Origin: a virus | Virus record (IMG/VR): IMGVR_UViG_3300044858_001474 | Span: 2,465 to 66,464 of that record | Reading direction: 5' to 3' (one strand) | Length of the DNA: 64,000 nucleotides | Shown: piece by piece, positions 30,466-36,672 of the stretch | Layout: each line of letters opens with the position of its first letter | Numbering within the stretch: the first letter of the stretch is position 1 | The notes under the pieces: generated by a model | Told to the model about the DNA's origin: nothing | The model's database searches: none | Seen by the model: the letters and a program-made list of their open reading frames with translations, nothing else | Program-made: the position numbers and the translations under genes

Positions 30466-30686
30466 TGTTAAAAGTGTTGTATAAGAGAGGACACACTCTA
30501 GCTGATATAGCTAGAAAGACTGATACAGCTATGGGTACACTGAGTTGTGTTAAACAAGAAACTAAAGCCCCACCAGCAGGATGGTTAGAAGGCATCGCGA
30601 TGCTAGATTACTGGCTTAAGGCGACAGGCGAATCCCCACCACGTATAGGGGACTATATAGATGTAGGAGAATTTACAGATGAATGA
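30438..30686 (+). CDS. Small HTH (Cro-like) protein
   Basis: [19 protein letters not shown]. Confidence 0.6.
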
Positions 30687-31371
30687 GCATAAAGATTACC
30701 GAGTAACGGTACGAGTAAGGAATAACAATATACTTAAATTGATTGAGGCTAAAGGAGTATCTGTGGCTAAGGTAGCTGAAGATATAGGTATGTCTTATAC
30801 TACATTGTTGGGATACATCCAACTACGTGATTCTCCAATAGACGCAAAAGGCACTCTAAAACTGTCAGCACAAAAAATATGTGCCTACTTTGGTGTGCTG
30901 GTTGAAGAAGTATGGTCGCTAGAACAGCTTACCCCTATAGAGTCTAATACACGAGAGCTTGAGTTCTCCTACCATGAGCTAACACGGCTTGAGAATATCT
31001 CTGACCCTATACTAAATCTTGAGAACGACCAATTAAAAGAGGTTATAGACTTTACCTTAGACACAAAACTAACCCCTAGAGAATCTAATATATTAAAGTT
31101 AAGGTTTGGATTTGAAGGAGACCCTCTATCATTAGAGCAGGTAGGAGACGTATTAGGAGTAACAAGAGAACGTGCAAGACAGATAGAAGCTAAGGCTCTT
31201 AGGAAGCTAAGACACCCTTCTAGACTTAATAGAGTCCGTGTTTGTTTGGGGGAGCGCGAAGTTGGTCCACAACGTTGGGACGACCCTAAAAAACTAGCAG
31301 AAGAAAAATTAGCAGATGACTTAGCGTTTTTAGAATACAGAAGTAGTAAGGAGCTCGTAGATGAGGACTAA
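30679..31371 (+). CDS. XRE-type HTH fused to a sigma70 (RpoD) region 4 domain
   Basis: N-terminal [17 protein letters not shown]-terminal [45 protein letters not shown]. Confidence 0.85.
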
Positions 31372-31684
31372 AGAAGGTGAGGTTAAAGATAAAGTTAAGA
31401 AGGCACTAACTGATGCAGGTGTATGGCATTTCTTTCCAGCGGCTAATGGGTATGGTAGGTCAGCTATACCAGATATAATATGTTGTGTGCAGGGTAAGTT
31501 CTTAGCTATTGAGTGTAAGGCAAACGACTTAAAGCCTACGGCAATCCAACAACGTGAGCTAGATAGAATCACTCAAAGTGGTGGGGCTGGCATCTGCATA
31601 AACGCTACGAACGTAGATAAATTAGTTGAGCACTTGAGGAGAATGTCAAATGGTGAGGAAGATGTATGCGAAAGGTACAAGTAA
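31361..31684 (+). CDS. VRR-NUC family nuclease
   Basis: [22 protein letters not shown]. Confidence 0.85.
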
Positions 31685-31821
31685 GTTAGAAGGGCTGTGC
31701 TTTTGGTTGTTAGTAGGGGTGGTGTTCGTAGTAAGCAGTATCTTTATAGCCGTGTTTGTACCCTTAGCATTATTCGGAGAGCTATTTAACCTTTGGGGAG
31801 ATAAAAAATGAGGGCTAAAGA

Positions 31822-32121
31822 ATGAAAGCGGTTGTAAAAACTGATAATAAATATAAGAAGTTTTTATACTGGGAAGACCTAACAGAGAAAGAAAAGGAGG
31901 ACTTTACCTACGATGAAGGAGAAACATTCATAAGGCTCTTTGATTATGTTTACTTAGTTCCTTATGATTTTATATCTGCCGAAGGGTGGAGTTTAGCTAG
32001 AAAGCATAAATGGGATTTGATTGAGCAAATAGACTACCCTATGAATGACATAGACTACGTAGTAATTCTCAAATATAACTATCATAAAACTGCCGTTAAA
32101 GTAGGAGTGTACTGGGTATGA
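31822..32121 (+). CDS. Hypothetical protein (paralog of 25379..25690)
   Basis: KTDNKYKKFLYWEDL..AVKVG. Confidence 0.65.
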   Translation: MKAVVKTDNKYKKFLYWEDLTEKEKEDFTYDEGETFIRLFDYVYLVPYDFISAEGWSLARKHKWDLIEQIDYPMNDIDYVVILKYNYHKTAVKVGVYWV

Positions 32122-32315
32122 AACTACAACAAATGCAGTATCCACTAGCAACAACCAGTGCTAGATGTATGGGTACTAACTGCAACCAGAAGAACCTATG
32201 TCAGAGATACCTGACCATTGAGATAGACACACAGAACTACGTGTGGCATATGGACGTAAAGAAAGAAATAGATGATGACGAGATATGTGACTTTTTTATT
32301 GAGTGGGGTGTGTGA
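32118..32315 (+). CDS. Small Cys-rich protein
   Basis: RC.G..C.....C.RY...C..F. Confidence 0.6.
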   Translation: MKLQQMQYPLATTSARCMGTNCNQKNLCQRYLTIEIDTQNYVWHMDVKKEIDDDEICDFFIEWGV

Positions 32316-33856: not shown

Positions 33857-34167
33857 TGAGTAAAGAAAGAGAGTTGTTGAGAGAAATAATGTGCTATATA
33901 GCATCGGGCGTAGTGTCTATTACAAGTAATGATCTTGGTGATGCCGCAGAAACGTTGCACGAAATACAAGAACTCCTCGCCCAGCCTGAGCAAGAGAACT
34001 TTGGGGTCTTTAAAGCCTTTTTAGAGCAGCTTGAATTTGATATACAACAAGACAATATAAAACGCCTAGTGCTATGTATGAGGCAAGATAATAAAAGTGT
34101 TTTAGCACAAGCGGTTTTAGATTATATGAAAGAGATCAATGCACCTATTGATATGGAGAAAGAGTAA
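33856..34167 (+). CDS. QPEQE-family protein (paralog 3, different C-terminus)
   Basis: [24 protein letters not shown]. Confidence 0.65.
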
Positions 34168-34565
34168 TGAATACAAGAGATAAGATAGCTATAGCGGCTA
34201 TGAATGGGTTAATGACTAAGAAGACTTGGAACTTGCAAGAGTTTGCACAAGACCCTATGAGGATAGCAATGTGGTCATACGATATAGCTGATGCAATGAT
34301 AATAGAGAAAAAAAGAAGAGAGCTGGCGGAGAGGAACAAACTAGAGGAGGCACCTAACCCACACCTTAAAGTTTTGATAAGAGACCTTGACCTTACCACA
34401 CGTGCCCAAAACTGTTTAAAAGCAGAGGAGATAGTATCTATTGAAGACTTAGCTCAACGGACTGAAGTTGAGCTATTAAAAACACCTAACTTAGGTAAAC
34501 ATACTCTACGTGAGATAAAAGATATGCTTACTCTTAGGGGTTTAAATTTACAAGAGAGACACTAA
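34167..34565 (+). CDS. Phage protein with an RNA polymerase alpha-subunit C-terminal domain
   Basis: [40 protein letters not shown] closely matches RpoA CTD. Confidence 0.9.
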
Positions 34566-36400
34566 TGCAACTAATGACAATAGACTTCGAATCTTTCTAC
34601 AGCAAAACATACAGCCTATCAAAGCTGACCACAGAAGAATATATAAATGGGGAGGAGTTTGAAGTTATTGGAGTGGGTATTAAGCTAGGAGATGCAGAGA
34701 CTACGTGGCATACAGGAGATCGAGTAGAGATAAGTAAAGTGCTTGGTCAATATAATTGGAGCGAGATTACTTTAGTAGCACACAACTGTTTCTTTGATGC
34801 GTCTATCCTTAGCCTTTACTTTGGTATCTTTCCAGCTAGGTATATGGACACTCTATCTATGGCACGTGCTATACATGGTATATCGGTAGGAGGTAGCTTA
34901 GCTAAGCTGGCAGAGCATTATGAGCTGGGAGTTAAGGGCACTGAGGTTGTTGATGCATTAGGTAAACACAGAAGAAACTTTACTGCGGGAGAACTAGCTA
35001 GGTACGGTGAGTATTGTATTAATGATGTTGAACTGACTTATGCACTGCTACAAAAACTACTAAGCCATTACGGGAATACACTTGAGCTACGTCTGATAGA
35101 TATAACAGTTCGTATGGGGGTTGTTCCTAGATTACAGGTAGACATGGGGATACTTGAGAGCCACTTATATGAGGTGAAGAAAGCAAAAGAGGACTTATTA
35201 GATAAGATAACAGTCGATAAGTCTGAGATTATGTCCAACCCTAAGTTTGCTAAGTTACTAGAAGATTGCGGCGTTGAACCACCTATGAAGATATCGCCTA
35301 CTACAGGTAAGATGACGTATGCATTTGCCAAGACTGATGATGGCTTAAAGGAATTACTTGAACATCCTAATCTTATGGTACAGGCGTTAGTTGCGGTTAG
35401 GCTAGGGGTTAAGTCTACTATTGAGGAGACACGTACTGAACGCTTTATAGGTATAGCAAACCGCATGGGGAGAATACCTATCCCACTTAATTATTATGGA
35501 GCGGCTACAGGTAGGTGGTCTGCAGGTAGTGGGCAGAAAGTAAACTTCCAAAATATTCCTAGAGGGTCTAAACTTAAAGAAGCAATCATCGCACCACAAG
35601 GATACGTTATAGTAGGAGCTGACTTATCAAACATCGAGCTACGTGTAGGTATGTGGGTAGCAGGTGAGACAGAGGCTTTGAGGACACTAGGCGAAGGTGG
35701 GGATTTATATAAGGAGTTTGCTAGTATGGCATTTGGTGTGCCTTATGATGAGGTAACTAAAGACCAAAGGTTTATTGGTAAGACATCGCAACTAGGACTA
35801 ATTTTTGGGGTCGGTGCGGCAAAGCTAAGAGGTGCTGTGAAGGCAGGGTCAGGTAAAGACTTAGGGGAGGCAGAGGCTAAGCGGATTGTTGACTTGTATC
35901 GTGCAACTTACACAGGGGTTACTGGTCTATGGAGAACGTGTAATGATGCTATTAAGTGTATAGCAGATGATGTACTAGGGTTTACATTTGGTACTAAAGG
36001 TATATTTATAGTTGATGGAAAGAAAGGAATAAGACTTCCTTCTGGTATGTACATGCAGTACCCGCAACTAGCTAATGGAGTAGATGAAAAGACAGGCGAG
36101 CAAGGATATAAATATAAACTTCGTAATGGTTATGATAGACTATACGGCGGTAAATTAACAAACAATCTAGTGCAGGGCACAGCCCGATGCATTATGTCAG
36201 AAGCAATGGTTAGGGTAAGTAAGCGGTATGACATCGTGCTTACTATTCACGATGCTTTATATATCCTAGCTCCTGAAGCAGAGGCAGAAGAAGCACTAAA
36301 GTTTTTAATGGAAGAGATGACCAAACCTCCTATATGGATGCCTGATATACCACTAGCGGCTGAGGGTGGATATGGTAGAAGTTTAAAAGATGCAGGATAA
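34565..36400 (+). CDS. polA: Family A DNA polymerase with 3'-5' exonuclease
   Basis: ExoI DFES, AHN..FD, YC.ND; ATGRWS, NFQNIP, DLSNIELR, R..GK...LG..FG, IHD. Confidence 0.95.
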   Translation: MQLMTIDFESFYSKTYSLSKLTTEEYINGEEFEVIGVGIKLGDAETTWHTGDRVEISKVLGQYNWSEITLVAHNCFFDASILSLYFGIFPARYMDTLSMARAIHGISVGGSLAKLAEHYELGVKGTEVVDALGKHRRNFTAGELARYGEYCINDVELTYALLQKLLSHYGNTLELRLIDITVRMGVVPRLQVDMGILESHLYEVKKAKEDLLDKITVDKSEIMSNPKFAKLLEDCGVEPPMKISPTTGKMTYAFAKTDDGLKELLEHPNLMVQALVAVRLGVKSTIEETRTERFIGIANRMGRIPIPLNYYGAATGRWSAGSGQKVNFQNIPRGSKLKEAIIAPQGYVIVGADLSNIELRVGMWVAGETEALRTLGEGGDLYKEFASMAFGVPYDEVTKDQRFIGKTSQLGLIFGVGAAKLRGAVKAGSGKDLGEAEAKRIVDLYRATYTGVTGLWRTCNDAIKCIADDVLGFTFGTKGIFIVDGKKGIRLPSGMYMQYPQLANGVDEKTGEQGYKYKLRNGYDRLYGGKLTNNLVQGTARCIMSEAMVRVSKRYDIVLTIHDALYILAPEAEAEEALKFLMEEMTKPPIWMPDIPLAAEGGYGRSLKDAG

Positions 36401-36468
36401 TATGGCTAACAAAACAAGTAATAAGAACCGTAAGAAAAAACCAAACCCTTTTAGAGCGAGAGAGAACT

Positions 36469-36672
36469 ATGGCTGACATTGCAGATAAAGCCAACGAGCA
36501 AGCCCAGTTAATACTGGAGAAACAAATAGCACTACAACGTGGCAAACCACTGGATATATACCAGAACGAGTCTAATAGATGTTGGTTCTGTGATGGTGAT
36601 GTAGTTGATGGTAGACGGTGGTGTGATGAGCAGTGCCGTGATGACTATGAACGTGAGGTAGGGAATGAGTGA
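36469..36672 (+). CDS. TraR/DksA-like C4 zinc-finger protein
   Basis: N-terminal D-x-x-D-x-A (MADIADKA); CWFC...WCDEQC. Confidence 0.65.
   Translation: MADIADKANEQAQLILEKQIALQRGKPLDIYQNESNRCWFCDGDVVDGRRWCDEQCRDDYEREVGNE

Follow-up and report, generated by a model that had tools for sequence, protein, structure and literature searches.

The locus described here raises the question of whether three small phage genes, each related to a part or a regulator of RNA polymerase (RNAP), act as one system. The genes are in the window, by which we mean the whole stretch of 64,000 nt that was analysed (bases 2465-66464 of the 66,464-bp IMG/VR record IMGVR_UViG_3300044858_001474, whose completeness is rated 100%). 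All three are on the plus strand within 6 kb according to the table of open reading frames (ORFs), and a Shine-Dalgarno-like sequence precedes each of them. They encode a protein carrying region 4 of a primary sigma factor (sigma4), a protein carrying the C-terminal domain of the RNAP alpha subunit (alpha-CTD) and a TraR-like protein, and the initial annotation had proposed that they are a coordinated trio. The data do not support a coordinated three-part kit as a unit of inheritance. They do point to a functional link between sigma4 and the alpha-CTD in phages, for which the occurrence of both domains in one polypeptide elsewhere is strong and independent support, and the family of single-chain sigma4-alphaCTD fusions is a more interesting result than the gene trio of the window. 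The features of the locus are as follows.

30679-31371, plus strand: HTH-sigma4 protein of 230 aa, with an XRE-type helix-turn-helix (HTH), homology to sigma regions 3.2, 4.1 and 4.2, and an acidic C-terminal helix (Pfam Sigma70_r4)
30718-30966, plus strand: Cro/C1 (XRE)-like five-helix HTH, residues about 14-96, closed by strands 7-12 and 91-96 (HTH_3 and an AlphaFold2 (AF2) model)
30955-31248, plus strand: primary-sigma homology, the end of region 3.2 followed by 4.1 and 4.2, residues about 93-190 (PDB and NCBIfam alignments)
34167-34565, plus strand: module-alphaCTD protein of 132 aa, whose stop overlaps the start codon of PolA (Pfam RNA_pol_A_CTD and the ORF table)
34167-34322, plus strand: phage-only two-helix N-terminal module of about 52 aa with an RDKIAIAAM...ADAM motif (phrog_2201, phrog_37111)
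34350-34553, plus strand: alpha-CTD, a double helix-hairpin-helix ((HhH)2) domain (PDB match; residue comparison with E. coli RpoA)
34565-36400, plus strand: family A DNA polymerase (PolA), flanked by alpha-CTD, sigma4 and TraR-like genes in this phage group (Pfam and PHROG)
36469-36672, plus strand: TraR-like protein of 67 aa, with DxxDxA at residues 3-8, Cys38, Cys41, Cys52 and Cys56, and a predicted short C-terminal helix (PHROG 54)

The first of the genes had been described as a detached RpoD region 4. Region 4 is present: the product matches Sigma70_r4 (PF04545) over residues 130-179 with an E value of 1.6e-18 (66.4 bits against a cut-off of 24.1). The description was incomplete, because a putative XRE HTH and the end of region 3.2 are attached to it. 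Alignments with primary sigma factors start at about residues 93-107 and end at residue 190, and the sigma stretch is 57% identical to region 4 of E. coli sigma70 and about 60-65% identical to Firmicute SigA. The -35 recognition helix matches E. coli RpoD 583-603 throughout, with I587A as the sole change. HTH_3 scores 21.5 bits on the window protein, which is under the 23-bit cut-off, and 35.8 bits on the family member P0073; PF01381 is precomputed in the database for many close relatives. The AF2 model of the whole protein (mean predicted local distance difference test score (pLDDT) 83) consists of a five-helix domain with two strands, followed by the sigma4 helices and an acidic tail helix, and it reaches pLDDT >90 in the five N-terminal helices. 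We considered whether the N-terminus is a cryptic sigma2 or sigma3 domain and do not favour this, given the HTH_3 matches in family members and the five predicted helices. Sigma70_r2 is not found in the protein, and the XRE HTH takes the place of regions 1-3. Without region 2 there is no core-binding or -10-melting module, so the HTH-sigma4 protein cannot be a sigma factor alone. Its relatives form a family of proteins of about 200 aa, for which one source annotation reads 'RNA polymerase sigma factor (sigma-70 family)'; the label 'sigma factor' on such phage proteins is wrong.

In both NCBIfam (E 8.9e-26, residues 60-187) and PADLOC (residues 101-186) the HTH-sigma4 protein is matched best by MzaA, which is sigma-70-like and belongs to the Mza anti-phage system. 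We rejected MzaA as a specific relative, because the match is probably confined to the shared region 4. A search for MzaA in the open-access literature returned irrelevant papers only.

The second gene had been reported to encode a detached RpoA CTD, and this was correct. Its product matches RNA_pol_A_CTD (PF03118) over residues 62-122 (E 4.3e-20; 71.6 bits against a cut-off of 23.8). This is the sole domain match in the 132 aa, in which the alpha N-terminal domain (NTD; PF01193/PF01000) is not found, and among solved structures the E. coli alpha-CTD (1coo) matches best. A family search with the protein gave 13 matches. An Atlas search with the N-terminal module (N-module) returned viral hypothetical proteins only, with scores <0.8. 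The N-module occurs without the alpha-CTD in relatives, and within this phage group the N-terminal part that precedes the alpha-CTD is of at least four kinds: the RDKIAIAAM module, a coiled-coil part beginning MKIHVEFNS (L016-L019, L101 and L106), and the forms found in L113 and L082.

The window alpha-CTD is gammaproteobacterial in type and is 59-68% identical to the best 80 bacterial copies. We attempted to find a donor or host through the nearest bacterial alpha-CTD; one scan gave nothing and a second gave the best 80 gammaproteobacterial loci, with no close donor among them. The captured domains have a phage-like GC content (0.38-0.39, compared with 0.41 for the surrounding block). Taken with the identity of 59-68% at closest, this suggests long residence in phages and points to an old capture of the alpha-CTD that has been maintained under selection. 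Additionally, residues 52-120 of the protein weakly match the BREX kinase PglW (NCBIfam E 0.005, PglW 783-850; PADLOC E 9e-4, PglW 788-856), which suggests that PglW contains an alpha-CTD-like HhH segment.

The distance between the sigma4 and alpha-CTD genes in the window is 2.8 kb and they are two separate ORFs. On an unrelated contig (L034), in contrast, the tblastn matches to the two domains are about 390 bp apart and in one ORF (9983-10654), which encodes a protein of 223 aa with sigma region 4, a charged helical linker of about 50 residues and an alpha-CTD. Among the 120 matches listed to this protein, 39 carry both PF04545 and PF03118, and three of the 39 also have an XRE-type HTH (P0154, P0170 and P0171). 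When the HTH-sigma4 family was compared with the three-domain P0154 using hhalign, the two aligned over the HTH and sigma4 together (probability 99.2%, E 7.5e-20); the value for P0170 was 98.1%. PF26169 is listed in the database for P0123, P0124 and P0161. Another sigma4-alphaCTD fusion, from a different lineage, is on L020. Example fusions from metagenomes are L034 9983-10654, P0134-P0171 and P0186.

A profile made from 20 fusion proteins was scored on 1.84 billion representatives (clusters at 50% identity). At least 1,511 clusters match it at E<=1e-30, a level that is reached only with both domains present or with several repeats of the alpha-CTD. Of the 150 profile matches listed, about 95 are 200-370 aa long and align in one stretch over nearly the whole profile, and the remaining listed matches are long and contain several alpha-CTD-like stretches each. 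In P0262, P0267 and others of this kind (500-1,500 aa) the number of stretches is 3-11, and these are multi-repeat alpha-CTD/HhH proteins. The only source name that we met for a fusion is 'hypothetical protein', and no publications on phage alpha-CTD or sigma4-alphaCTD proteins were found in the open-access literature. In 50,697 GenBank phage records there is no full-length fusion (none of 16 matching records covers at least 80%), HTH-sigma4 protein (none of 41) or module-alphaCTD protein (none of 17), and many of the partial protein matches are to host rpoA or rpoD in mis-binned records. The sigma4-alphaCTD fusions appear to be a large family that has been neither named nor described.

The fusions and the window phage have the same two captured domains, optionally preceded by the same XRE HTH, and in both these are located in a replication module; in all contexts examined on unrelated contigs, sigma4 and alpha-CTD genes are within replication/recombination modules. 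They differ in that the fusions are one polypeptide with a coiled coil of about 50 residues, and in that the fusion domains resemble Firmicute sigma and alpha whereas the window alpha-CTD is of the gammaproteobacterial type. Captured sigma4 has been met behind an XRE HTH and behind an unrelated N-terminus (L119), and it is also present in L138. The L119 protein (9808-10635, about 275 aa), which is encoded directly after PolA in a distant PolA relative, combines a region 4 that closely resembles that of RpoD with a long, charged coiled-coil tail and represents a third architecture. The sequences suggest that phages have captured sigma4 and the alpha-CTD repeatedly and independently. The two genes of the window match the pieces of a chain that is single elsewhere, which is classic evidence that the pieces act on the same target.

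All copies were aligned to E. coli RpoA and RpoD. We take the roles of the alpha-CTD residues to be those of the 261, 265 and 287 'determinants', and those of the sigma4 residues to be as in the structure of sigma4 on a -35 element. In 40 fusion-type proteins the DNA-contact residues conserved in the alpha-CTD are R265 (40/40), N268 (38/40), C269 (38/40), N294 (39/40) and G296 (40/40), and to a lesser degree K298 (K or R in 31/40) and S299 (31/40), whereas positions 285-289 are freely variable. R265 is a DNA-binding residue of the alpha-CTD (PMC2988020, in excerpt). The window alpha-CTD retains R265, N268, C269, N294 and G296. In sigma4, positions 586-601 of region 4.2 are near-invariant in 33 HTH-sigma4 relatives and 39 fusions, and the rest is 25-40% identical. 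The counts in the HTH-sigma4 relatives and the fusions, respectively, are 31/33 and 39/39 for R586, 29/33 and 35/39 for R588, 28/33 and 37/39 for Q589, 32/33 and 37/39 for K593, and 33/33 and 39/39 for R596. R584 and E585 are present in 24/33 and 26/33 of the HTH-sigma4 proteins, and R584 in only 11/39 of the fusions. The window sigma4 has R584, E585, R586, R588 and Q589. All three kinds of domain (HTH, sigma4 and alpha-CTD) are predicted DNA binders, and the coiled coils and helical modules that commonly accompany them could oligomerise.

The third gene had been put down as encoding a DxxDxA TraR-like protein, and the PHROG search agrees. The product, which starts MADIADKA, matches PHROG 54 ('DksA-like zinc-finger protein') at E 1.6e-9. 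In 27 relatives D3, D6 and the four Cys are invariant and A8 is present in at least 90%. When the family profile was aligned with F TraR using hhalign (probability 72.5%, E 3.3e-5), residues 1-47 lay on TraR 1-49 with DxxDxA and the first CxxC in register; only the first CxxC aligned. Curated models did not recognise the protein: there was no Pfam match at E<=0.1, PF01258 matched nothing in the genome, and TIGR02419 gave 19.5 bits against a cut-off of 59.7. The AF2 model is a helix-Zn-helix with a mean pLDDT of 65 and helices at 3-23 and 54-65, the latter at low confidence. With a model at this pLDDT, Foldseek found nothing at E<=0.001, and in a VIA-wide fold search TraR (5w1s_M, Z 2.4) and YbiI (2kgo, Z 2.5) were tied with unrelated chains. 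The sequence matched nothing in the PDB and the family profile matched only YbiI (E 0.015).

Homologues with 30-42% identity are in 28 GenBank phage records (Ralstonia, Burkholderia, Erwinia, Proteus, Pseudomonas and others), and several are named 'DksA-like zinc-finger protein' in RefSeq. The TraR-like gene is a syntenic core gene in the close clade and is common in proteobacterial phages, including those without sigma4 or the alpha-CTD. TraR-family proteins are recognised by DxxDxA in an N-terminal helix, by a zinc globule of the C4 type (CxxC-17-CxxC) and by a C-terminal helix, which contacts the beta lobe Si1, and the mechanism of TraR and lambda Orf73 is described in the same source, including the effect of TraR on rrnB P1 (PMC9239242, in excerpt). 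On sequence grounds the window protein is a divergent member of these already known DksA/TraR-type proteins. By analogy, rRNA and ribosomal-protein promoters are its probable targets, which it would inhibit without guanosine tetraphosphate (ppGpp). It is an ordinary, separately inherited host-reprogramming gene.

The initial annotation had seen no RNAP and no complete sigma factor in the window, and none was found in the record as a whole. There is no Sigma70_r2 match at E<=1 anywhere in the 66,464 bp, which contain one alpha-CTD and one sigma r4 match above the cut-offs. A search with the T7-type RNAP family gave no match in the record, but the control matched nowhere either and so this result proves little. 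None of the large ORFs looks like an RNAP; they are virion or replication proteins. The phage therefore appears, from its gene content, to depend on the host RNAP throughout.

From the domain identities, the architecture, the conserved residues, the distribution and the fusions we infer, with a probability of roughly 0.45, that the HTH-sigma4 and module-alphaCTD proteins are DNA-bound replicas of the -35/UP-reading head of RNAP which occlude or retarget sigma70 promoters and so alter transcription. In such a scheme a phage wholly reliant on the host RNAP would carry the three as separate genes in its plus-strand early/replication block. The TraR-like protein would most likely bind the secondary channel of RNAP and shut down rRNA and ribosomal-protein promoters, as TraR and lambda Orf73 do. 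The other two would be accessory genes, derived from old captures of primary-sigma 3.2-4 and the RpoA CTD and belonging to a large phage set that includes the (XRE-HTH)-sigma4-coiled-coil-alphaCTD fusions. Because they have no sigma region 2 or alpha NTD with which to hold RNAP, and keep the DNA-reading residues, their products would act mainly as a DNA-bound replica, sigma4 on TTGACA-type -35 elements and the alpha-CTD on A/T-rich UP-like DNA. Affinity or specificity would be raised by the additional HTH and the oligomerising modules, and in a phage with both proteins the two would work next to each other, as in the fusions. Strong sigma70 promoters would be occluded or re-weighted as a result, whether host promoters of the rRNA type or the phage's own consensus early promoters. 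There are four of the latter (19625, 22492, 24965 and 27020), each with 11-12 of 12 positions of TTGACA/TATAAT, so that sigma4 targets exist on the phage itself and early shut-off is as plausible as host shut-off. A broader proposal, which we consider doubtful, is that phages have repeatedly captured both domains as a polymerase-free 'promoter-reading head', fused or split, and that these make up a widespread undescribed class of host takeover, squatting on -35/UP sequences of the strongest sigma70 promoters or swapping onto the beta flap, with the effect of silencing host transcription of the rRNA type and early phage transcription. The window phage would then be the split-gene case of gammaproteobacterial type, in which TraR would strike the same promoters via the secondary channel.

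Several observations weigh against the DNA-bound replica. In the window alpha-CTD K298 is replaced by H and S299 by T, and segment 283-297 is identical to that of E. coli; this segment presumably holds the activator-contact '287 determinant' and would fit a protein decoy equally well. The invariant 4.2 helix also bears an activator-contact patch and adjoins the surface that binds the beta flap, so its conservation does not single out DNA binding, and an isolated sigma4 domain is a weak DNA binder. Clearly A/T-rich upstream DNA combined with a consensus -35 was present at only one (22492) of the six promoter-like sites examined. The distribution of the genes also counts on this side. Relatives were gathered in IMG/VR with each of the three proteins, 80 PolA-anchored loci served as a sample independent of the trio, and six-frame ORFs of the loci were scanned with hidden Markov models built from the alignments of this study. 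In the 80 PolA-anchored loci the TraR-like gene was found 31 times, the alpha-CTD 12 times and sigma4 four times, and a single locus had both sigma4 and the alpha-CTD, which is not above chance (Fisher's exact p 0.49); many surveyed loci are truncated contigs, which makes the absences soft. A sister contig with a 99% identical PolA and a 100% identical TraR-like protein is without sigma4 and the alpha-CTD: the genes on either side of the sigma4 slot are directly adjacent there, and upstream of PolA is a gene that retains only the N-module motif. L022 has sigma4 and no alpha-CTD, and L015 has the alpha-CTD and no sigma4. A complete 53.8-kb phage carries an HTH-sigma4 gene and no alpha-CTD, and a complete 62.9-kb phage carries the alpha-CTD with no sigma r4 match. 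Across the PolA-anchored loci, the sister contig and the two complete phages, the genes largely occur independently, which the initial annotation had named as grounds for refuting the trio. A predicted co-fold of the HTH-sigma4 and module-alphaCTD proteins scored 0.00 against a mark of 0.32 and was used neither for nor against binding.

The idea that sigma4, the alpha-CTD and the TraR-like protein are one obligate, coordinated system suffers most from this distribution and is highly improbable. The trio is within 6 kb on one strand, and all its members could plausibly converge on UP/-35-dependent rRNA promoters, given that TraR acts on rrnB P1 (PMC9239242, in excerpt). The alpha-CTD is also enriched in TraR-positive loci (nine of the 12 loci with an alpha-CTD are TraR-positive, compared with 22 of the 68 others; p 0.009), but this is explained by kinship, since both genes belong to the close clade. 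The 31 TraR-positive loci include nine with the alpha-CTD, two with sigma4 and one with both, no TraR-like gene is within 10 kb on either side of the HTH-sigma4 and fusion loci from other lineages, and the TraR-like gene is common in phages that have neither domain. What stands of the coordinated trio is therefore the sigma4-alphaCTD link, through the fusions; the three genes are not co-inherited, and TraR is not specifically tied to the other two. The two domains might instead work on RNAP itself. Sigma 3.2-4 could replace region 4 of sigma70 on the beta-flap tip, as T4 gp33 does, with the XRE HTH, and the alpha-CTD where present, adding upstream contacts that steer RNAP to middle or late phage promoters. 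The homology does reach the 3.2 linker, the part of sigma that runs to the flap; the acidic segment before region 4.1 is conserved in the fusion family, and the 4.2 motif of primary sigma factors is retained exactly. The best Foldseek matches of the HTH-sigma4 protein are whole sigmaA chains (177-190 columns aligned, rmsd about 13 Å), sigma4 is directly after PolA in the distant relatives L119 and L138, which recalls the replication-coupled late transcription of T4, and with gp33 there is already one free-standing 'sigma4 mimic' that binds the flap (PMC2988020, in excerpt). On the other hand, a free domain would have to displace the tethered region 4 of sigma70, and an AsiA-like remodeller was not identified. 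A pure flap binder would have no need of the -35-reading residues, yet they are kept, and gp33 itself reads no DNA sequence (PMC2988020, in excerpt). Additionally, the sister phage has the same promoters and not the gene, so the protein is not an essential early-to-late switch. We consider docking on RNAP unlikely.

The conserved surfaces could also serve as protein decoys, with the free sigma4 and alpha-CTD titrating docking proteins of the host or of a rival phage, such as class I/II activators, Rsd, anti-sigma factors of the AsiA/gp67 type, NusA AR2, enzymes that ADP-ribosylate or cleave the alpha-CTD, or a defence sensor. Besides the identity with E. coli over 283-297, the window alpha-CTD keeps D259 and an acidic residue at 261, and the window sigma4 keeps the patch K593/R596/K597/R599/R603. 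The top solved matches include partner-bound domains (4g6d and 4g8x, sigmaA region 4 bound by phage G1 ORF67, for the sigma4 part; 2jzb for the alpha-CTD), and phages are known to attack the alpha-CTD by ADP-ribosylation of R265 (PMC2988020, in excerpt) and by Rac cleavage (PMC7552054, in excerpt). The MzaA match would fit a defence sensor, but it covers the shared region 4 only. No partner was identified, the XRE HTH and the coiled coils would be superfluous in a decoy, and in the 40 fusion-type proteins it is the DNA-contact residues that are conserved and not 285-289. Titration of activators or anti-sigma factors is possible in principle, and DNA binding is indicated by the conserved residues to at least the same degree; as an account of these proteins the decoy seems quite unlikely. 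A use outside transcription, in which the HhH and HTH domains have been recruited for replication, origin binding or as PolA accessories and the likeness to RNAP is mere ancestry, is very unlikely. It would explain why the alpha-CTD gene overlaps the start of PolA, why an N-module gene is in the same slot in the sister phage without the alpha-CTD, why alpha-CTD or sigma4 genes adjoin PolA in L016-L019, L101, L106, L119 and L138, and why every context examined is a replication/recombination module. It would not explain why the fused domains are exactly the two neighbours on promoter DNA, recurring in the clusters counted above, or why the 4.2 motif is held to the primary-sigma sequence, which generic DNA binding does not need. 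N-module genes are also found with no PolA match in the available locus (L007, L008 and L010).

The early promoters are accompanied by two kinds of repeat. A palindrome of about 26 bp, with a half-site of about GCTAAGTTATAAC, occurs seven times (19685-19711, 20392-20420, 21530-21556, 22571-22596, 23212-23240, 25041-25066 and 27101-27126), and four of the seven are 50-80 nt downstream of the promoters at 19625, 22492, 24965 and 27020. There is also a conserved GC-rich hairpin (family D2) after three promoters (22537-22562, 25012-25037 and 27065-27090, following 22492, 24965 and 27020, respectively). The palindrome could serve as an operator to which a dimeric HTH protein binds, or each early leader could contain it as a hairpin or processing site at the RNA level. 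The initial annotation had suggested that the promoter-proximal palindromes act jointly with the trio, and we rejected a link with the HTH-sigma4 protein because the palindromes do not co-vary with its gene: the sister without sigma4 (L037/L080) keeps both promoter and palindrome, and a sigma4-positive relative (L004/L021) keeps the promoter and is without the palindrome.

The rest of the genome is that of a phage with no close GenBank relative by DNA comparison, and the nearest PolA proteins are only about 33% identical (Pseudomonas and Rhizobium phages). The plus-strand block at 19.7-45.8 kb contains the early and replication genes (resolvase-like nuclease, family A DNA polymerase, helicase and primase). 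The structural genes (terminase, portal and virion proteins) are on the minus strand at 1-19.5 kb and 45.8-64 kb and include the following.

45820-52446, minus strand: internal virion protein of 2,208 aa with a transglycosylase domain

The lytic transglycosylase region of this protein is N-terminal, and another stretch of it matches a DarB-like antirestriction PHROG (E 2.1e-12). Directly upstream of the HTH-sigma4 gene, or overlapping it, are genes for HTH-looking proteins of 235 aa (29758-30465) and 82 aa (30438-30686) without a family match, which with the HTH-sigma4 gene make three consecutive putative DNA-binding regulators; the 82-aa gene is just 59% identical in the sister phage without sigma4. 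Between the sigma4 and alpha-CTD genes there are three small paralogous ORFs (32539-32886, 32876-33283 and 33793-34167) with an N-terminal start of the SKERELL/KERELL type and an LLAQPEQE motif in common. Two of the three have a PLYTAP motif; in L037 the same motif immediately precedes the N-module motif of the gene upstream of PolA. Pfam searches of two of the three gave no match. Finally, a homing endonuclease of the HNH/His-Me type with a C-terminal HTH is at 37461-37937, between the genes for DUF3310 and a PD-(D/E)XK nuclease, and it is missing from several close relatives (tblastn table), which fits a mobile insertion.

Known strategies against host transcription bind, modify, cleave or replace parts of RNAP (AsiA/MotA, gp33/gp55, gp67, Alt/ModA, Rac and the TraR homologues). 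Detached copies of its promoter-recognition domains, if that is what these proteins are, would be a different strategy, competition by self-mimicry. The fusion family offers a testable entry point, because its members are small, soluble-looking proteins and their predicted ligands (UP/-35 DNA, beta flap and activators) are standard reagents. If they do occlude promoters, compact and portable repressors of sigma70 promoters may be possible.

The closest known counterpart of the TraR-like protein is the TraR/lambda Orf73 family, with which it has in common its small size (67 aa compared with 73), DxxDxA at residues 3-8 of the N-terminal helix, four Cys, a predicted short C-terminal helix and its place as an early gene of a phage. 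It differs in its Cys spacing (CxxC-10-CxxxC instead of CxxC-17-CxxC), in scoring under the Pfam and TIGR02419 cut-offs, and in that its low-confidence model has no significant fold match. For the HTH-sigma4 protein the nearest parallel is T4 gp33, which we take to have no sequence similarity to sigma region 4; the window protein, in contrast, is truly homologous to primary sigma 3.2-4, keeps the -35-reading residues unchanged and carries an XRE HTH in addition. In both cases a phage without its own RNAP has a free-standing protein in place of sigma region 4, as gp33 and gp55 are described in the excerpt of PMC2988020. In that description gp33 does not recognise DNA sequence, and it acts together with the sliding clamp and a sigma2-like partner (PMC2988020, in excerpt). 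No gp55-like partner was found in the record of the window phage, where there is no sigma r2 match. Phage sigma factors of the PHROG 351/1740 type have region 4 in common with the HTH-sigma4 protein, which has an XRE HTH instead of regions 1-3. In S. aureus phage G1, gp67 reportedly acts against upstream promoter recognition. The presumed target of the window proteins, upstream recognition by sigma4 and the alpha-CTD at strong host promoters, is the one that they share with gp67, with T4 Alt/ModA and with phiKMV Rac. Whereas those proteins bind, modify or cleave the host's domains, the window phage encodes copies of the domains themselves.

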